Virus record (IMG/VR): IMGVR_UViG_3300048858_000123 | Coordinates: 1-43,211 of that record | Source: a virus | Taxonomy: Duplodnaviria > Caudoviricetes | DNA length: 43,211 bases | Strand: one strand, 5' to 3' | Part shown: positions 2,643 to 41,705 of the stretch, piece after piece | Position numbering within the stretch: the stretch's first letter is position 1 | Layout of the letters: every line of letters starts with the position of its first letter | The notes under the pieces: model-generated | Told to the model about the DNA's origin: nothing | The model's input: only the letters and a program-made list of their open reading frames with translations | The model's database searches: none | Program-made: the position numbers and the translations under genes

Positions 2643-3680
2643 TCAACGCCTCCGATCTGCGGCCTCTAAGGCCTTGTCCATGAAGTCCGGCGAATGGTGG
2701 GCGTAGATGCGTGCGGTGGTCTCTGGGTCCTGCCCGAGCCAACCGGCGATGTCCCACATCGGCACCCCATTCTGCGCCAACCAGGTGCCTCGCGTGTGCC
2801 GCAAGGTGTGCGGCGTCACGTCTTCCAGCTTGGCCCTGGCGACCGCGGCACGAAAGCCCTTGTCGATTCGCTGGATAGGCTTGCCGTCGATATGCAGGAC
2901 CGGGCCGATGTCGCTTGATCGGCGAGCCCAGGCCAAGTGCATGAAGGTCATGAGCCGGCGCGGGATCGGCAGCGTCGGCCGGCGCTTCTTCGTCTTTGCG
3001 CGGCCAGGCACGGCAAACGACATGCGCTTCGCCTTAAGATCTACCTGAGGCCACTTGAGCGACAGGATCGCCTCCTTGCGTGCTCCGGTGTAGAGCGCGA
3101 TCAGCACGAACAGCGGCAGATAGAGCCGGGTGTCGCGCCCACCCTGCCGAGCCGCGTTCAGCAACTTGGCGGCTTCGGGCATGGTCAGCCAGCGGTCCTT
3201 CGGCTCTGGCTTGGCAGGCAGAGGAACGGCGACCACGCGCGTCAGCTTGCCAGACTTGAACAGGAAGTTCTGCGCCGCGGTGATCGTCGCCAGCTCGCGC
3301 CGCACTGTGCCGGGCGATTTGCCCCGGTAGCGCACGTAGGCATCACAGGTCAGCGGCGTGATCTGGTCGAGCATGTTGTGCTCCCAGAACGGCAGCAGCG
3401 CTTCCACGGCGTAGGCAATGCGCGCGGCGTCAGTGGCCTTGGGCGCTCGGTGCTCCAGGTAGAAGGACAGCGCCTCAGCCACGCCTATTTGCCCTGGTTC
3501 CCGCGGCCCGGCATGCTGATGACTTGCCCCGATGAACCGCGCGAGGGCTGCTTCAGCTTCGCGGCGGTCTGACGTGCCAGTTGACCGAATGCACTTCTTC
3601 CCGTGGTCGTACCAGAGAATGTAGAAGGCCTCTCGACCAGCGATCCAGTGGAGACGCGGCCCTCGGTTTGGTCTTGGCAT
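2643..3680 (-). CDS. int: Tyrosine recombinase (phage integrase)
   Basis: LYTGARKEAIL (catalytic R), PHTLRHT (HxxR), LGQ in place of LGH, RIYAHH (catalytic Y). Probable start ATG 3680 (MPRPNRGPRL). Confidence 0.93.
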   Translation of the reverse strand: MPRPNRGPRLHWIAGREAFYILWYDHGKKCIRSTGTSDRREAEAALARFIGASHQHAGPREPGQIGVAEALSFYLEHRAPKATDAARIAYAVEALLPFWEHNMLDQITPLTCDAYVRYRGKSPGTVRRELATITAAQNFLFKSGKLTRVVAVPLPAKPEPKDRWLTMPEAAKLLNAARQGGRDTRLYLPLFVLIALYTGARKEAILSLKWPQVDLKAKRMSFAVPGRAKTKKRRPTLPIPRRLMTFMHLAWARRSSDIGPVLHIDGKPIQRIDKGFRAAVARAKLEDVTPHTLRHTRGTWLAQNGVPMWDIAGWLGQDPETTARIYAHHSPDFMDKALEAADRRR

Positions 3681-3844
3681 GTCTTCTGCTTTTCGATGAA
3701 GGTGACGACGTCTTTTTCGTCGTAGAGGAAGGCCTTGCCGAGGCGCACCGCGGCCAAGCCCTTTTCGCGCATGGTGCGCACTGTGCGAGCTGATGGGATG
3801 CCGAAGTTCTGGCAAACCTGCTCTGCCGTGAGAAGCCGGGTCAT
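3485..3844 (-). CDS. Excisionase-like HTH protein
   Basis: N-terminal MerR/Xis-type HTH (LLTAEQVCQNFGIPSARTVRTMREKGLAAVRLGKAFLY); its 3' part overlaps the start of int. Confidence 0.72.
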   Translation of the reverse strand: MTRLLTAEQVCQNFGIPSARTVRTMREKGLAAVRLGKAFLYDEKDVVTFIEKQKTCQDQTEGRVSTGSLVERPSTFSGTTTGRSAFGQLARQTAAKLKQPSRGSSGQVISMPGRGNQGK

Positions 3845-3902
3845 GTCGCCTGCTCTTGTGTGTGAGGGTTGCTACTGGTGTCGGGCGCATCCTGGCGCTG
3901 GG

Positions 3903-7567: not shown

Positions 7568-8491
7568 CTAGCTGGCTTTCGTCAGCTTCTTGATGCCGAA
7601 CGCCTCGATCGCTGCGGTTGCCTTAGGTGCGGGCAGCTCCCCCTGCTTCACTTTGGACTGCAAGTAGTTCGGGAGCTGTTTAGGGATGTAGTGCTCGCGT
7701 ACCCACTTCCGAAACTCGCCAAGGGCATCGTCAGGGTAGCACTTCGGGGTTTGAGGGTTAGACACCGACTGCGGAAAATACGCTGGATAGTTGTGCTCGT
7801 ATTTCTTGCTCGGGCCGTACAGAACCTCAAGGTTCTCGGCGATCCAAAACTTGGACCAGGCCATTCCCACGCTGATGTCTGGAATGAAAGAGTTGCCCAA
7901 CTCAGCACCCTGCCGGATCAGTGTCACCAGCATGTCGGCCACTTCCTTGAACACGCTGAAATAGCCATCTGGCACCGTGTGATAGGACAGGCCAACCCGA
8001 TCGTGGAACTGCTTCCATGCGATGCCGGCGTCGCCCTTGGGGTTGTAACCTACCTGAGCATAGATGAAGTCATTGAACCCCTTGCGGGCTAGCGTCCGGT
8101 AGCTCTTAGCGGCTGCTTCATAGGTGGTGCCGGACTCGAACGCGTAGTACTCTAGAACCGCCATGCAAACTGCTGCCGGAATGGCGTGCTGGATAGTTCC
8201 GTCTTTGACCAGAGCAATAAAAGCGACGTTATCATCAGCGCCTTGTGCGCGAACGAGTTCTCGGATCTTTCGGACACGCACCTTAGCTGGTGTCTCAAGC
8301 CAGTCTGCGGTGATTCGAATGATGTTCGTGTGATCCACGCCACACATCCGAGCCAAGCCGCGGATGTTAAGGAACGGCGTGCCATCGCTCAGCACCCCCA
8401 TTCCCACTCCGTCGATTTCACGTTCGACCGCGATCTGAAGATCTAGCCGTAGCTGTTCGGGGGTGGTGACCAAATCCTTAGGTATCGCCAT
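7568..8491 (-). CDS. bstA: BstA-family abortive-infection (anti-phage) protein
   Basis: 307 aa. Motifs EIDGVGMGVLSDGTPFLNIRGLARMCGVDH, VCMAVLEYYAFE, PDGYFSVFKEVAD, IPDISVG, HNYPAYFPQ, YPDDALGEFRKW match my recollection of BstA; lower GC than its flanks. Confidence 0.85.
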   Translation of the reverse strand: MAIPKDLVTTPEQLRLDLQIAVEREIDGVGMGVLSDGTPFLNIRGLARMCGVDHTNIIRITADWLETPAKVRVRKIRELVRAQGADDNVAFIALVKDGTIQHAIPAAVCMAVLEYYAFESGTTYEAAAKSYRTLARKGFNDFIYAQVGYNPKGDAGIAWKQFHDRVGLSYHTVPDGYFSVFKEVADMLVTLIRQGAELGNSFIPDISVGMAWSKFWIAENLEVLYGPSKKYEHNYPAYFPQSVSNPQTPKCYPDDALGEFRKWVREHYIPKQLPNYLQSKVKQGELPAPKATAAIEAFGIKKLTKAS

Positions 8492-10839: not shown

Positions 10840-11039
10840 GCCTGCCCCCGCGCGTTGGCGAAGGCCTCGCCCACGGTCTTGCCGCAGCCCATCCTGTCGC
10901 CGGTGATGTAGACGCTGAAGTTATCGCCAAGCTGGGCAATGCGCAGGACGCCGTTGCGCCGCATGAAGCTGGTGAGGTCGAAGCCCTCGTGACCATCATC
11001 CGCGATCGCGGGAGGTCTGATTTTCGTGATTGCGTTCAC
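10836..11039 (-). CDS. Hypothetical protein, first gene after PL
   Basis: RBS GGAGA, GTG start, coupled to the next ORF. Confidence 0.6.
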   Translation of the reverse strand: MNAITKIRPPAIADDGHEGFDLTSFMRRNGVLRIAQLGDNFSVYITGDRMGCGKTVGEAFANARGQA

Positions 11040-11078
11040 GGGTGATCTCCAGAGGGCGCTGTGCCCTGCTGGAAATAG

Positions 11079-11121
11079 TGCTACGCATATCGTAGCTATT
11101 GGTCAATACGAAAATCGTAGC
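11079..11121 (-). promoter_or_regulatory. PL promoter with two operators
   Basis: GCTACG-catat-CGTAGC (11080-11096) and ATACG-aaaat-CGTAGC; minus strand TTGACC-17 bp-TAGCAC. GTCAATACGAAAATCGTAGC (11102-11121) is identical to 7465-7484. Confidence 0.82.
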
Positions 11122-11163
11122 AGGAAATCACTTTCCTACATCCGTCCAGATCCCCATTTATCG

Positions 11164-11178
11164 GAACAGAATGAGAAC
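11164..11178 (+). promoter_or_regulatory. Alphaproteobacterial LexA (SOS) box
   Basis: GAAC-AGAATGA-GAAC (GAAC-N7-GAAC), 12 bp upstream of ATG 11191. Confidence 0.78.
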
Positions 11179-11190
11179 AGAGGCGAATCG

Positions 11191-11490
11191 ATGAAGCGGG
11201 TCAGACTGCCTAGTCCAGAATGCGAAGGCGGTTGTTCGCCCTGCTACCTCGATTGCGCGATGACGCGCATGGCGATCAGTTCATTAGCTCGCGAAATCGA
11301 GTTACTGATGCGCGAGCAGCCGCCGAGACGACATCGGCACTGGCCTGACTGGTGGGAGAACCGCCGAGCATGCCAAGACCATATGCAAACGCTTCAGCTA
11401 AGGCTCTCCGAGATTGATCCGTCATCCGACCAGGTGGCGGAGCGATCGGCAGCAGCGCGTCTAGTAAGGGCTCCAGAGCGTCTGCACTGA
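11191..11490 (+). CDS. Candidate SOS-induced antirepressor, antisense-overlapping cI
   Basis: LexA box, GAGG RBS 7 nt before the ATG, 99 aa with CX3CX2CX3C (CEGGCSPCYLDC) followed by a helical region; 215 nt overlap with cI on the opposite strand. Confidence 0.55.
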   Translation: MKRVRLPSPECEGGCSPCYLDCAMTRMAISSLAREIELLMREQPPRRHRHWPDWWENRRACQDHMQTLQLRLSEIDPSSDQVAERSAAARLVRAPERLH

Positions 11491-11692
11491 AGGTCTGGGC
11501 GCCGCCAAGCTCTAAACCATAGCGCTCTACAAGCAGCTTCATCTCATCGATTTTGATAGCACGCTTGCCGGTGAATATCTCTGCAACTCGCGAGCTGGGC
11601 AGCTTGAGAAGGCGTTGAAGGTCAGCGTTTTTCACGATCCCCTGTTCGCGGAGTCGTTCCAGTTCGGAAATCAGGCCTTTTGAATCAAGCAT
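11276..11692 (-). CDS. CI-like prophage repressor (HTH, no S24 peptidase domain)
   Basis: HTH KNADLQRLLKLPSSRVAEIFTGKRAIKIDE; divergent from the cro-like gene across operator sites; 138 aa from ATG 11692. Confidence 0.82.
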   Translation of the reverse strand: MLDSKGLISELERLREQGIVKNADLQRLLKLPSSRVAEIFTGKRAIKIDEMKLLVERYGLELGGAQTFSADALEPLLDALLPIAPPPGRMTDQSRRALAEAFAYGLGMLGGSPTSQASADVVSAAARASVTRFRELMN

Positions 11693-11784
11693 GCCTGATT
11701 TTAGGCGAAATCCTCGTACTGCGTCCGCAACGAACATCGTACTAAGCACTTGCGTTGCCGCTACGTTTATCGTAGCACTGCCGT
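11693..11784. promoter_or_regulatory. OR region: PR and PRM with operators
   Basis: GCTACG-tttat-CGTAGC (11760-11776), GCAACG-aacat-CGTACT (11727-11743), weak third site 11704-11720. PR is TTGCGT-17 bp-TAGCAC; minus-strand TAAAAT lies 5 nt before the cI ATG. Confidence 0.78.
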
Positions 11785-12000
11785 ATGAAGACAGCAGCGG
11801 ACATCATCGAAGTGCTCGACGGCGCGGCGTCTATCGCCCGCAAGACGGGCTTCCCCCTTAGCACGGTTGCAAGCTGGAAAGCGGCCAACTTCATTCCTGA
11901 GTGGCGCCGGCCCGCGCTTATCAAGCTGGGCAAGGGCAAGATCCGCGCTGAAGATTTCCCGCCCGAGACCGCACGGGTTTCCCGGAAGCAGGCGGCATGA
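11785..12000 (+). CDS. Cro-like HTH protein
   Basis: IIEVLDGAASIARKTGFPLSTVASWKAANFIP; 71 aa; divergent from cI. Confidence 0.82.
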   Translation: MKTAADIIEVLDGAASIARKTGFPLSTVASWKAANFIPEWRRPALIKLGKGKIRAEDFPPETARVSRKQAA

Positions 12001-12131
12001 AGCGTCTCCTCGCTCATATGCGTGAATGGTCCAAGCGGACTGCAACGACGACTGACATCATCCTAGCGGTGGCAACAACGATTGTCGGACTGCTTGTTGG
12101 CATGATGGTGCTGGAGGCGATCCGGTCATGA
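11997..12131 (+). CDS. 44-aa single-TM protein (not in the ORF track)
   Basis: ATGA-coupled at both ends; [19 protein letters not shown]. Confidence 0.5.
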
Positions 12132-12430
12132 TCGGCCTCACCCATAAGCAGAGAGACTGCCTCTCCTTCATCCAGAGCTACACCGATGAACACGGTGCCT
12201 CGCCCAGCTTCGAGGAGATGAAGGCGGGCCTCGGGCTCAAGAGCAAAAGCGGTGTTCACCGTCTTCTCGATGCCTTGGAAGAGCGCGGTCATATCCGCCG
12301 GATGCCCTGGCGCGCTCGGGCGATCGAGGTGGTCACGGCTAACCCGCTTGCTGGCGTGTCGACTGCCGACTTGCTGGCTGAGATCGAGCGTCGGCGCCCC
12401 GGCCTCGCAGCAATGGCGCTGGCAGCATGA
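12128..12430 (+). CDS. Truncated LexA-like protein (DNA-binding domain only)
   Basis: LTHKQ...[44 protein letters not shown] closely follows the alphaproteobacterial LexA N-terminus; no peptidase domain in 100 aa. Confidence 0.85.
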
Positions 12431-40894: not shown

Positions 40895-40969
40895 TGGAGC
40901 GGCGACCGAGACTCGAACTCGGCTCTTCAGCTTGGAAGGCTGAGGCACAAACCTCTATACCACCGCCGC
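40895..40969 (-). tRNA. tRNA-Gly(TCC)
   Basis: GCGGCGG TG GTAT AGAGGTTT GTGC C TCAGC CTTCCAA GCTGA AGAG CCGAG TTCGAGT CTCGG TCGCCGC T CCA: full cloverleaf, U73 discriminator, encoded CCA. Confidence 0.9.
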
Positions 40970-41287: not shown

Positions 41288-41302
41288 GTTCTCCTACTGT
41301 TC
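41288..41302 (+). promoter_or_regulatory. Alphaproteobacterial LexA (SOS) box
   Basis: GTTC-TCCTACT-GTTC, 2 nt before ATG 41305. Confidence 0.78.
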
Positions 41303-41304
41303 TC

Positions 41305-41481
41305 ATGCGCCGCATCGCGATCGAACAACCAGATGGGGGCCTCTACAGGTGGCAAGACGGCAGGCCCGTCACCTTCAAGACCGTTGCTCAGGCAAGCCTC
41401 TTCAGGGCACCGGATGAGCGCCTGAAGCCCATAGACGTGCCTGAGGACCATGAGGACGCGCAGTTCTCTGGTCCGCACTGA
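41305..41481 (+). CDS. 58-aa SOS-box-preceded protein (not in the ORF track)
   Basis: MRRIAIEQPDGGLYRWQDGRPVTFKTVAQASLFRAPDERLKPIDVPEDHEDAQFSGPH; stop overlaps the next ATG (TGATG). Confidence 0.6.
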   Translation: MRRIAIEQPDGGLYRWQDGRPVTFKTVAQASLFRAPDERLKPIDVPEDHEDAQFSGPH

Positions 41482-41705
41482 TGGGCAGCAAGCGCCTCGA
41501 CGACATAGCTGCCCTCGCCCGGTATAAGCTCGACCTGCAGGTGAAATGCCGGTGTGGGCACACGGCGGTGCTGAACAGTGACAAGGTGCTGAAGGAATGC
41601 CTGGGATCGACGCGCGACCGGAGCTTGGTGGCCATCCAGCGCCGACTACGGTGTTCGGCCTGCAAGGGGCGTGAGGTGACTTGTGGGCCTTGTTTTCGTG
41701 GTTAG
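41481..41705 (+). CDS. Small Zn-ribbon protein
   Basis: VKCRCGH...RLRCSACKGR; coupled to the upstream ORF. Confidence 0.7.
   Translation: MGSKRLDDIAALARYKLDLQVKCRCGHTAVLNSDKVLKECLGSTRDRSLVAIQRRLRCSACKGREVTCGPCFRG

Follow-up and report, generated by a model that had tools for sequence, protein, structure and literature searches.

The 43,211-nt stretch of viral DNA analysed here (the window) contains a 99-codon open reading frame (the ORF) that is fronted by a LexA-type box and runs antisense into the part of a CI-like repressor gene (cI) that encodes the C-terminal domain. We consider it probable, though well short of certain, that the ORF product is a LexA-repressed antirepressor of the non-cleavable CI, which would free the phage operators after DNA damage. 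The relevant features are given below in coordinates of the window.

1-2396: host genes for an E1 dehydrogenase and thymidylate synthase
2643-3890: integrase
Right of the integrase: terminase and capsid genes
11077-11121: OL-like leftward operator pair of TACG-N5-CGTA palindromes (repeat family D1 and inverted pairs I1, I2 and I6 with 11755-11779)
11123-11140: AGGAA...TTCCTAC element upstream of the box, candidate RogA-like repressor site or -35 element
11164-11178, plus strand: LexA-type box GAAC-N7-GAAC, GAACAGAATGAGAAC
11180-11183, plus strand: GAGG ribosome-binding site, 7 nt 5' of the ATG
11191-11490, plus strand: candidate antirepressor of 99 aa, ATG at 11191, with Cys4 knuckle (11-22), helical hairpin (20-41/51-75) and disordered tail (79-99)
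11276-11490, both strands: dual-coding segment of 215 nt, encoding CI residues 69-138 on the minus strand and ORF residues 29-99 on the plus strand
11276-11692, minus strand: non-cleavable CI-like repressor of 138 aa, HTH (4-58) and three-helix C-terminal domain (70-137), alternative start at 11737
11725-11779: OR-like rightward operators in the cI-cro interval (repeats D1, D4, I1 and I2)
11785-12000, plus strand: cro-like gene divergent from cI (YdaS-like, E = 0.019; phrog_8008 DNA binding protein, E = 3e-4)

The window represents an integrated temperate prophage with host genes at one end and phage genes beyond, and named relatives point to a sphingomonad as the host. Its immunity region is lambdoid, with cI on the minus strand, a cro-like gene on the plus strand and operators on either side of cI; the operator role of the OL-like pair would follow from this layout. 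OL and the leftward early genes (a 67-aa ORF and an exonuclease) are located upstream of the antisense ORF. The cro operon also encodes a 100-aa protein that comprises a LexA DNA-binding domain alone (12128-12430, plus strand) and could feed back on SOS boxes. Elsewhere, a BstA anti-phage defence gene was identified within a stretch of lower GC content (7568-8491, minus strand; PADLOC E = 1.6e-122), and a tRNA-Gly(TCC) gene was located 3' of the lysis genes (40895-40969, minus strand).

The sole domain match of CI was HTH_3, and the S24 peptidase halves of five relatives matched nothing anywhere in the window at E < 0.04. The closest longer relatives of CI shared 53-67% identity across their N-terminal 63-91 residues (the HTH) but contained an S24 domain; Peptidase_S24 was detected in none of 19 partner repressors scanned, most of which were trimmed to the last 170 aa. 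CI may start at the ATG at 11737 (153 aa) instead of 11692, as many homologues were called from MFVAD, and it lacks S24 from either start. The longer start (MFVAD..., 11723-11737, minus strand) sits within the OR operators, and its conservation may therefore reflect operator DNA. AlphaFold2 predicted an HTH followed by helices 70-83, 92-109 and 119-137 (pLDDT 81.6); in distant members helix 3 is degenerate or cut off, and helices 1 and 2 are kept. A Foldseek search of CI against the PDB gave nothing at E ≤ 0.001, with weak DdrO/XRE rows, and the ESM Atlas returned generic HTH clusters only.

The four cysteines of the ORF product (Cys11, 15, 18 and 22), which likely bind a metal, assumed to be Zn, are encoded ahead of the cI stop and thus outside the overlap. 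Within the overlap, the two frames are not codon-aligned, with ORF position 1 pairing with cI position 1 and ORF position 2 with cI position 3. AlphaFold2 predicted the hairpin 20-41/51-75 at pLDDT values of 88-96, followed by a disordered tail. The tail is encoded opposite CI residues 69-91, ORF helix 2 opposite CI 93-118 and ORF helix 1 opposite the CI tail. These results agree with the original prediction, which had placed the 99-aa ORF at the same coordinates, had reported the box, the GAGG, the 138-aa repressor and the 215-nt overlap, and had described the repressor as devoid of an S24 peptidase, the Cys motif as lying outside the overlap, and the ORF frame as distinct from the codon-aligned shadow frame. 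No Pfam or PHROG match was obtained for the window ORF; NCBIfam gave no match common to 37 ORF family members, Foldseek nothing at E ≤ 0.001 in the PDB or BFVD, and the ESM Atlas no usable match.

In the window alone, the box count was at chance level (2 seen versus 1.1 expected; 30 of 100 shuffles), and the probability of an open antisense frame given the CI protein was 0.10-0.14. As these features are no better than chance, support rests on the homologues. The two values would fit an ORF that is a shadow of a conserved CI domain, the box serving something else, as would the fact that gene callers mostly leave the ORF out; it is usually lost from annotation because it overlaps cI.

Homologous loci were gathered by searches through cI and by searches through the ORF. 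Duplicates, a locus on a contig that ends within cI (L010), two S24-bearing relatives (L018 and L019) and an HTH-only match (L029) were left out before counting; L011, L020 and L021 were left out of the counts, and L076 of the cassette/HTH-group and proline-codon analyses. Among the 64 unique loci including the window, the C-x3-C-x2-C-x3-C motif was present in 63 and the perfect box in 57, being missing in the other seven. The overlap amounted to 209-242 nt in 57 of the 64 loci. In 57 loci the box was located 45-128 nt 5' of the first Cys codon; it was inverted in two of these, as expected for a protein-binding site. The short C-terminal domain of an HTH gene lay opposite the ORF in 63 loci; in the remaining one (L076) the opposite HTH gene was not recognisable, and in L058 the ORF reads past its usual stop. 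Neither box nor ORF was found in the S24-bearing L018 and L019. In 22 loci judged by eye, the neighbouring genes were mostly cro-like and early phage genes. Box, start, motif and same-frame overlap thus recur in homologous loci, which is the check that had been proposed.

A 48-row ORF profile retrieved 146 clusters at 50% identity, and the gene was found in 29 of 401 Sphingomonas genomes searched. A class-wide search of 401 genomes returned, besides the seed genome, a single match, rejected as a box-less shadow of an apparent MarR-type gene; the family was not seen outside the sphingomonads in this set. A single-protein search with P0001 found no relative among viral contigs; with P0002, the 90% protein set yielded no homologue, and a 14-row profile found three. 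The isolated Sphingopyxis phage VSN-002 carries the module with the ORF unannotated, and its genome announcement makes no mention of the module (PMC9302152).

The three loci left out of the counts as a group contain Cys-less antisense ORFs in the same frame (L020, 3194-3433, minus; L021, 3119-3433, minus; L011, 1005-1253, minus) that overlap short non-S24 repressors with a related HTH by 209-257 nt. Two of the three ORFs are preceded by a GAAC-N7-GAAC box. They were not linkable to the family (best E = 0.003), and their layout would represent a distant or independent version of the overlap arrangement. In two box-less loci (L078 and L080), an apparent LuxR-type HTH gene follows cI on the opposite strand and abuts the ORF start, which suggests that the ORF has been rewired to another input.

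In the 20 loci found through cI, the only set free of bias from fetching through the ORF, the ORF frame was open across the C-terminal domain in every case, compared with 0/20 and 3/20 for the other antisense frames. Seven representatives with <60% identity contained 0 stops versus 8.6 expected (log10P -4.4), which bears out the predicted depletion of stops; pairwise counts are not independent, and this clustered test is the conservative one. In a set of 34 loci that includes ORF-fetched ones, 0 stops occurred in 2393 overlap codons versus 47-55 expected, and the same frame opposite the HTH part contained 68 stops in 1972 codons. The fourfold-site divergence of cI was 0.343 in the overlap versus 0.554 in the HTH (50 versus 35 columns, 15 loci), and this synonymous constraint was significant by column permutation (p = 5e-5). 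Codons of the ORF outside the overlap had divergences of 0.20, 0.22 and 0.55 at positions 1, 2 and 3, a coding signature. In all 34 loci the ORF stop occupied the same alignment column, where the first C-terminal helix of CI begins (TAG in 20, TGA in 12, TAA in 2); the TAG form requires a CCT proline codon in cI, a codon that accounts for 16% of the other prolines of the gene. Selection also acts on the cI side, with ORF fourfold-site divergence of 0.13-0.22 in the overlap versus 0.615 outside, and 0 cI stops in the overlap versus 36 expected.

Comparison of the loci shows the ORF to be a real, conserved gene under purifying selection as a protein, and by the same codon statistics the ORF and cI form an antisense overlapping pair with both frames selected. 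In agreement with the earlier claim, the gene is thus real, conserved, box-fronted and dual-coded with the CI C-terminal domain. The shadow explanation is effectively refuted by the family-level stop depletion, the synonymous constraint, the coding signature outside the overlap and the fixed stop, and we assign it almost no weight.

The box, read as GTTC-N7-GTTC, was also present upstream of six out of six recA/lexA genes in all three Sphingomonadaceae genomes inspected, and GTTC-N7-GTTC is given as the Caulobacter SOS box in the accessible part of a published study (PMC9578287). A second conserved element is found further upstream. Of 57 loci, 51 had a TCCTA/TAGGA half-site no more than 60 nt from the box, mostly 23-29 nt 5' of it; the frequency was 3.6% in control windows and 13% in shuffles. 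The TCCTA/TAGGA element also precedes a chromosomal HTH-S24 gene in four of four genomes, three of which have a box no more than 35 nt away. The ORF promoter of many loci (e.g. L013 and L055) is closely similar to the intergenic region that separates this host HTH-S24 gene from a divergent operon of small genes (L100-L103), both having the order TAGGA-N4-TCCTA, then GTTGGA, then box. The genes divergent from the host HTH-S24 gene appear to be gafY/gafZ. A scan for sigma-70 consensus promoters found none. No RNA holder was listed for the region, a result that does not bear on expression.

The element recalls the sites of Caulobacter RogA, described in the available text as an HTH-S24-like host repressor with GGAA...TTCC inverted repeats at its target promoter (PMC9632790). 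RogA sites have the form GGAA-N4-TTCC, whereas those observed here are mostly TAGGA-N4-TCCTA (GGAA-N2-TTCC), and the sphingomonad HTH-S24 protein keeps Ser/Lys-like motifs that are said to be missing from RogA (PMC9632790, available part). Dual control of the ORF by LexA and a RogA-like repressor is possible on these grounds, and the element may instead be part of the promoter.

The conserved second element would also suit an ORF product that binds CI as a co-repressor or tuner that delays induction, or that requires a second signal through the cysteine cluster or the RogA-like site. A model of the complex gives no sign of the effect of binding, which leaves room for such a role, but the LexA-controlled CI binders in the consulted literature are antirepressors. 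Moreover, a CI that has no self-cleavage route implies that the missing piece is an SOS-induced activator of lysis, and we regard a tuner as very unlikely.

Repressor domain and ORF remained associated while the HTH changed. In the nearest ORF relatives (L031 and L032), identity to the window was 64-71% for the ORF and 65-68% for the C-terminal domain but only 6-12% for the HTH, and the 63 loci comprised 18 HTH groups. This supports, at the level of sequence comparison, a cassette of C-terminal domain and ORF that stays intact across HTH swaps, and the expectation that the two are tied together held in that both stay joined while the HTH varies. The tree, in which 20 of 60 branches had good support, was poorly resolved and does not reveal the order in which the swaps occurred.

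A complex of CI residues 65-138, ORF residues 1-80 and Zn was modelled in three runs. The ipSAE values were 0.07, 0.67 and 0.67 (median 0.67), compared with 0.01 for the best of three controls, and both types of control were near 0. The runs agreed in at least 24% of contacts, with a partner pLDDT of at least 67 and a CI-side pLDDT of only 62-65. The score mark applied was reached by 116 of 157 solved versus 2 of 215 mismatched pairs, counts that are a rough guide here; our own alignments and the Zn ligand place the modelling outside the calibration. The predicted interface comprises CI residues 75-85 and 89-109 and ORF residues 4-10, 20-39 and 57-71; CI helix 3, lost or degenerate in distant members, falls outside it. 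All CI interface residues and 14 of the 24 ORF interface residues are encoded by the overlap. The ORF and CI alignments are genetically coupled through their shared DNA, and shared codons could mimic covariation; the contacts were therefore compared with the shared-codon diagonal. Among the best 25 contacts, 20 were at least 36 residues off this diagonal and none was closer than 7. On the ORF side, interface residues showed higher conservation (p = 0.028) and hydrophobicity (p = 0.002); on the CI side, conservation was borderline (p = 0.054) and hydrophobic residues were not enriched (fraction 0.49 versus 0.48). At the level of prediction, the model speaks for docking of the ORF hairpin onto the CI C-terminal domain; structure prediction for the pair had been among the checks suggested, and the predicted complex passes its controls.

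An SOS product overprinted on cI could have another target (host LexA or RecA, a host repressor, cell division or a phage protein), with the prophage induced by another route. Some phage proteins under LexA control do act on host targets, GIL01 gp7 being an example in the accessible literature, and neither homology nor fold searches linked the ORF to a known antirepressor. The window also contains a second GAAC-N7-GAAC box (41288-41302) at its right end, beside a 58-aa ORF and a 74-aa Cys-containing ORF (operon 41305-41705), neither of which had a family match. This operon could be an alternative source of the inducer, which would speak against the role proposed for the ORF; PHROG scans of 29 other window ORFs gave no antirepressor family, scans that would miss an undescribed family. 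Finally, 33 of 137 relatives with the Cys motif have a long N-terminal and a short C-terminal part, so that the domain may exist outside the overlap. Against another target stand the short C-terminal domain of the HTH gene opposite the ORF in 63 of 64 loci, kept across HTH swaps, the absence of the ORF beside S24-bearing relatives, and the predicted complex with both control types near 0. We consider another target unlikely, though of the alternatives it is the one to be taken most seriously.

The 33 relatives, which are among proteins P0102-P0187, are extended at the N-terminus and stop shortly past helix 1. A helix-2 profile scored >5 bits on the N-terminal part in 8 of the 33 versus 0 of 42 others and 4% of shuffles, and a circular permutation is possible. 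A search for the genomic context of these permuted-looking relatives returned only the known loci L064 and L026.

The closest described counterpart is the AimX/AimC pair of the Bacillus extended arbitrium phages phi106, phiW23 and BMBtp14, in which, according to the available part of the report, a small ORF with an upstream LexA site is convergent on and overlaps the repressor gene. AimX of phi106 is a helical antirepressor of 29 aa encoded just 3' of a LexA site, convergent with aimC and overlapping it by 30 bp; AimC is a short repressor with an HTH and a small helical C-terminal domain, insensitive to RecA and mitomycin. An AimX-AimC heterodimer was demonstrated, and binding to the C-terminal oligomerisation domain was modelled (bioRxiv 10.1101/2025.11.23.689978, available part). 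The original prediction that no described switch has this layout therefore does not stand, since LexA site, convergent antirepressor and antisense overlap are all found in AimX/AimC. The two systems, compared by description rather than sequence, differ in several respects: AimX proteins have 29-80 aa, overlap by 30 bp in phi106 and are tied to AimR/AimP, whereas the candidate described here has 99 aa, a Cys4 motif, a 215-nt overlap spanning the whole C-terminal domain and an alphaproteobacterial direct-repeat box. Furthermore, no AimR/AimP was noted beside the ORF, upstream of which lie OL and the leftward early genes; in the AimX module, aimR and aimP precede the antirepressor gene.

The AimX system also bears on the idea that induction acts mainly in cis, the derepressed promoter silencing cI by polymerase collision or antisense pairing with the protein as an accessory. 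The geometry is head-on, with no terminator-like site in 10900-12200, and part of the constraint on the shared DNA could act at the RNA level. The constraint is, however, patterned by codons, the cysteines are invariant and the stop is fixed. Moreover, phi106 and phiW23 aimX alleles with the start changed to a stop codon are reported to be unresponsive despite an intact antisense transcript, AimX acting as a protein with little role for an antisense or collision effect (bioRxiv 10.1101/2025.11.23.689978, available part). The RNA-silencing add-on of the original prediction is therefore less likely, and induction mainly in cis appears distinctly unlikely, slightly more so than another protein target.

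By function, a protein antirepressor of CI would resemble Tum of 186, AntC of N15 and the Gifsy antirepressors. GfoA, GftA and GfhA of Gifsy-1, -2 and -3 are small LexA-controlled proteins that bind GfoR, GftR and GfhR; as in the present case, the repressor is short (~136 aa), without a cleavage signature, and it is inactivated by antirepressor binding (PMC3121763, accessible part, where 186 Tum and N15 AntC are cited). The sequence features of this functional class, a repressor without S24 and a box at the ORF promoter, are both found here. The Gifsy antirepressor gene lies outside the immunity region in the available description, whereas the ORF is located between OL and cI and overlaps cI. 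No sequence or fold homology of the ORF to the Tum, AntC or Gifsy families was detected (Pfam, PHROG, NCBIfam, and Foldseek against PDB and BFVD). Capture of the oligomerisation domain of an HTH repressor by a small helical protein is also described for SinI/SinR (per bioRxiv 10.1101/2025.11.23.689978, available part). Mimicry of the SinI type was rejected: the profile-profile probability between ORF and CI domain was only 1.1% (hhalign, E = 0.049), and the ORF is therefore not a sequence mimic of that domain. The control region of a temperate phage likewise contains an antisense dual-coding pair in the case of olg1/gene 10 of Pseudomonas phage Fc02; according to the accessible text, these are superinfection-exclusion genes and not a repressor and its inducer (PMC9936078). 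No description of the ORF family was found in the literature searched. Within that scope, the Cys4-hairpin family, the dual coding of the whole C-terminal domain together with most of the predicted interface, and the cassette exchange between HTHs are new, as the second, RogA-like upstream element appears to be.

For the antirepressor, we propose the following course of events. By its sequence, CI consists of an HTH and a helical C-terminal domain without S24 and is flanked by OL- and OR-like operators in an integrated prophage; the antisense gene, under purifying selection as judged by comparison, always ends at the start of the C-terminal domain. Host LexA very probably represses the box promoter, and RecA-driven cleavage of LexA would turn the ORF on. 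The ORF hairpin is predicted to pack against CI helices 70-83 and 92-109. By analogy with AimX/AimC and the Gifsy antirepressors, this binding would block CI oligomerisation, free OL and OR and induce the prophage. Since a single DNA segment encodes most of both predicted surfaces, recombination would be unable to part domain from ORF, and the two would be transferred together, as an induction cassette, to HTHs of other specificity. A more far-reaching version, which we offer tentatively and hold to be rather doubtful, is a lock-and-key cassette in which the oligomerisation helix of the repressor and the antirepressor helix gripping it are encoded on opposite strands of one DNA segment, co-evolving and shuffled onto at least 18 specificities, its promoter borrowed from the host HTH-S24 (RogA-like) locus, which would place induction under both LexA and the regulator of the gene-transfer-agent type.

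The module is testable because the isolated phage-host pair VSN-002 / BSN-002 carries it. It may explain how DNA damage is sensed in many sphingomonad prophages whose repressors are short and uncleavable. It would also provide a natural example of long dual coding on opposite strands whose two products are predicted to bind each other, of value for work on overprinting and on the co-evolution of interfaces.
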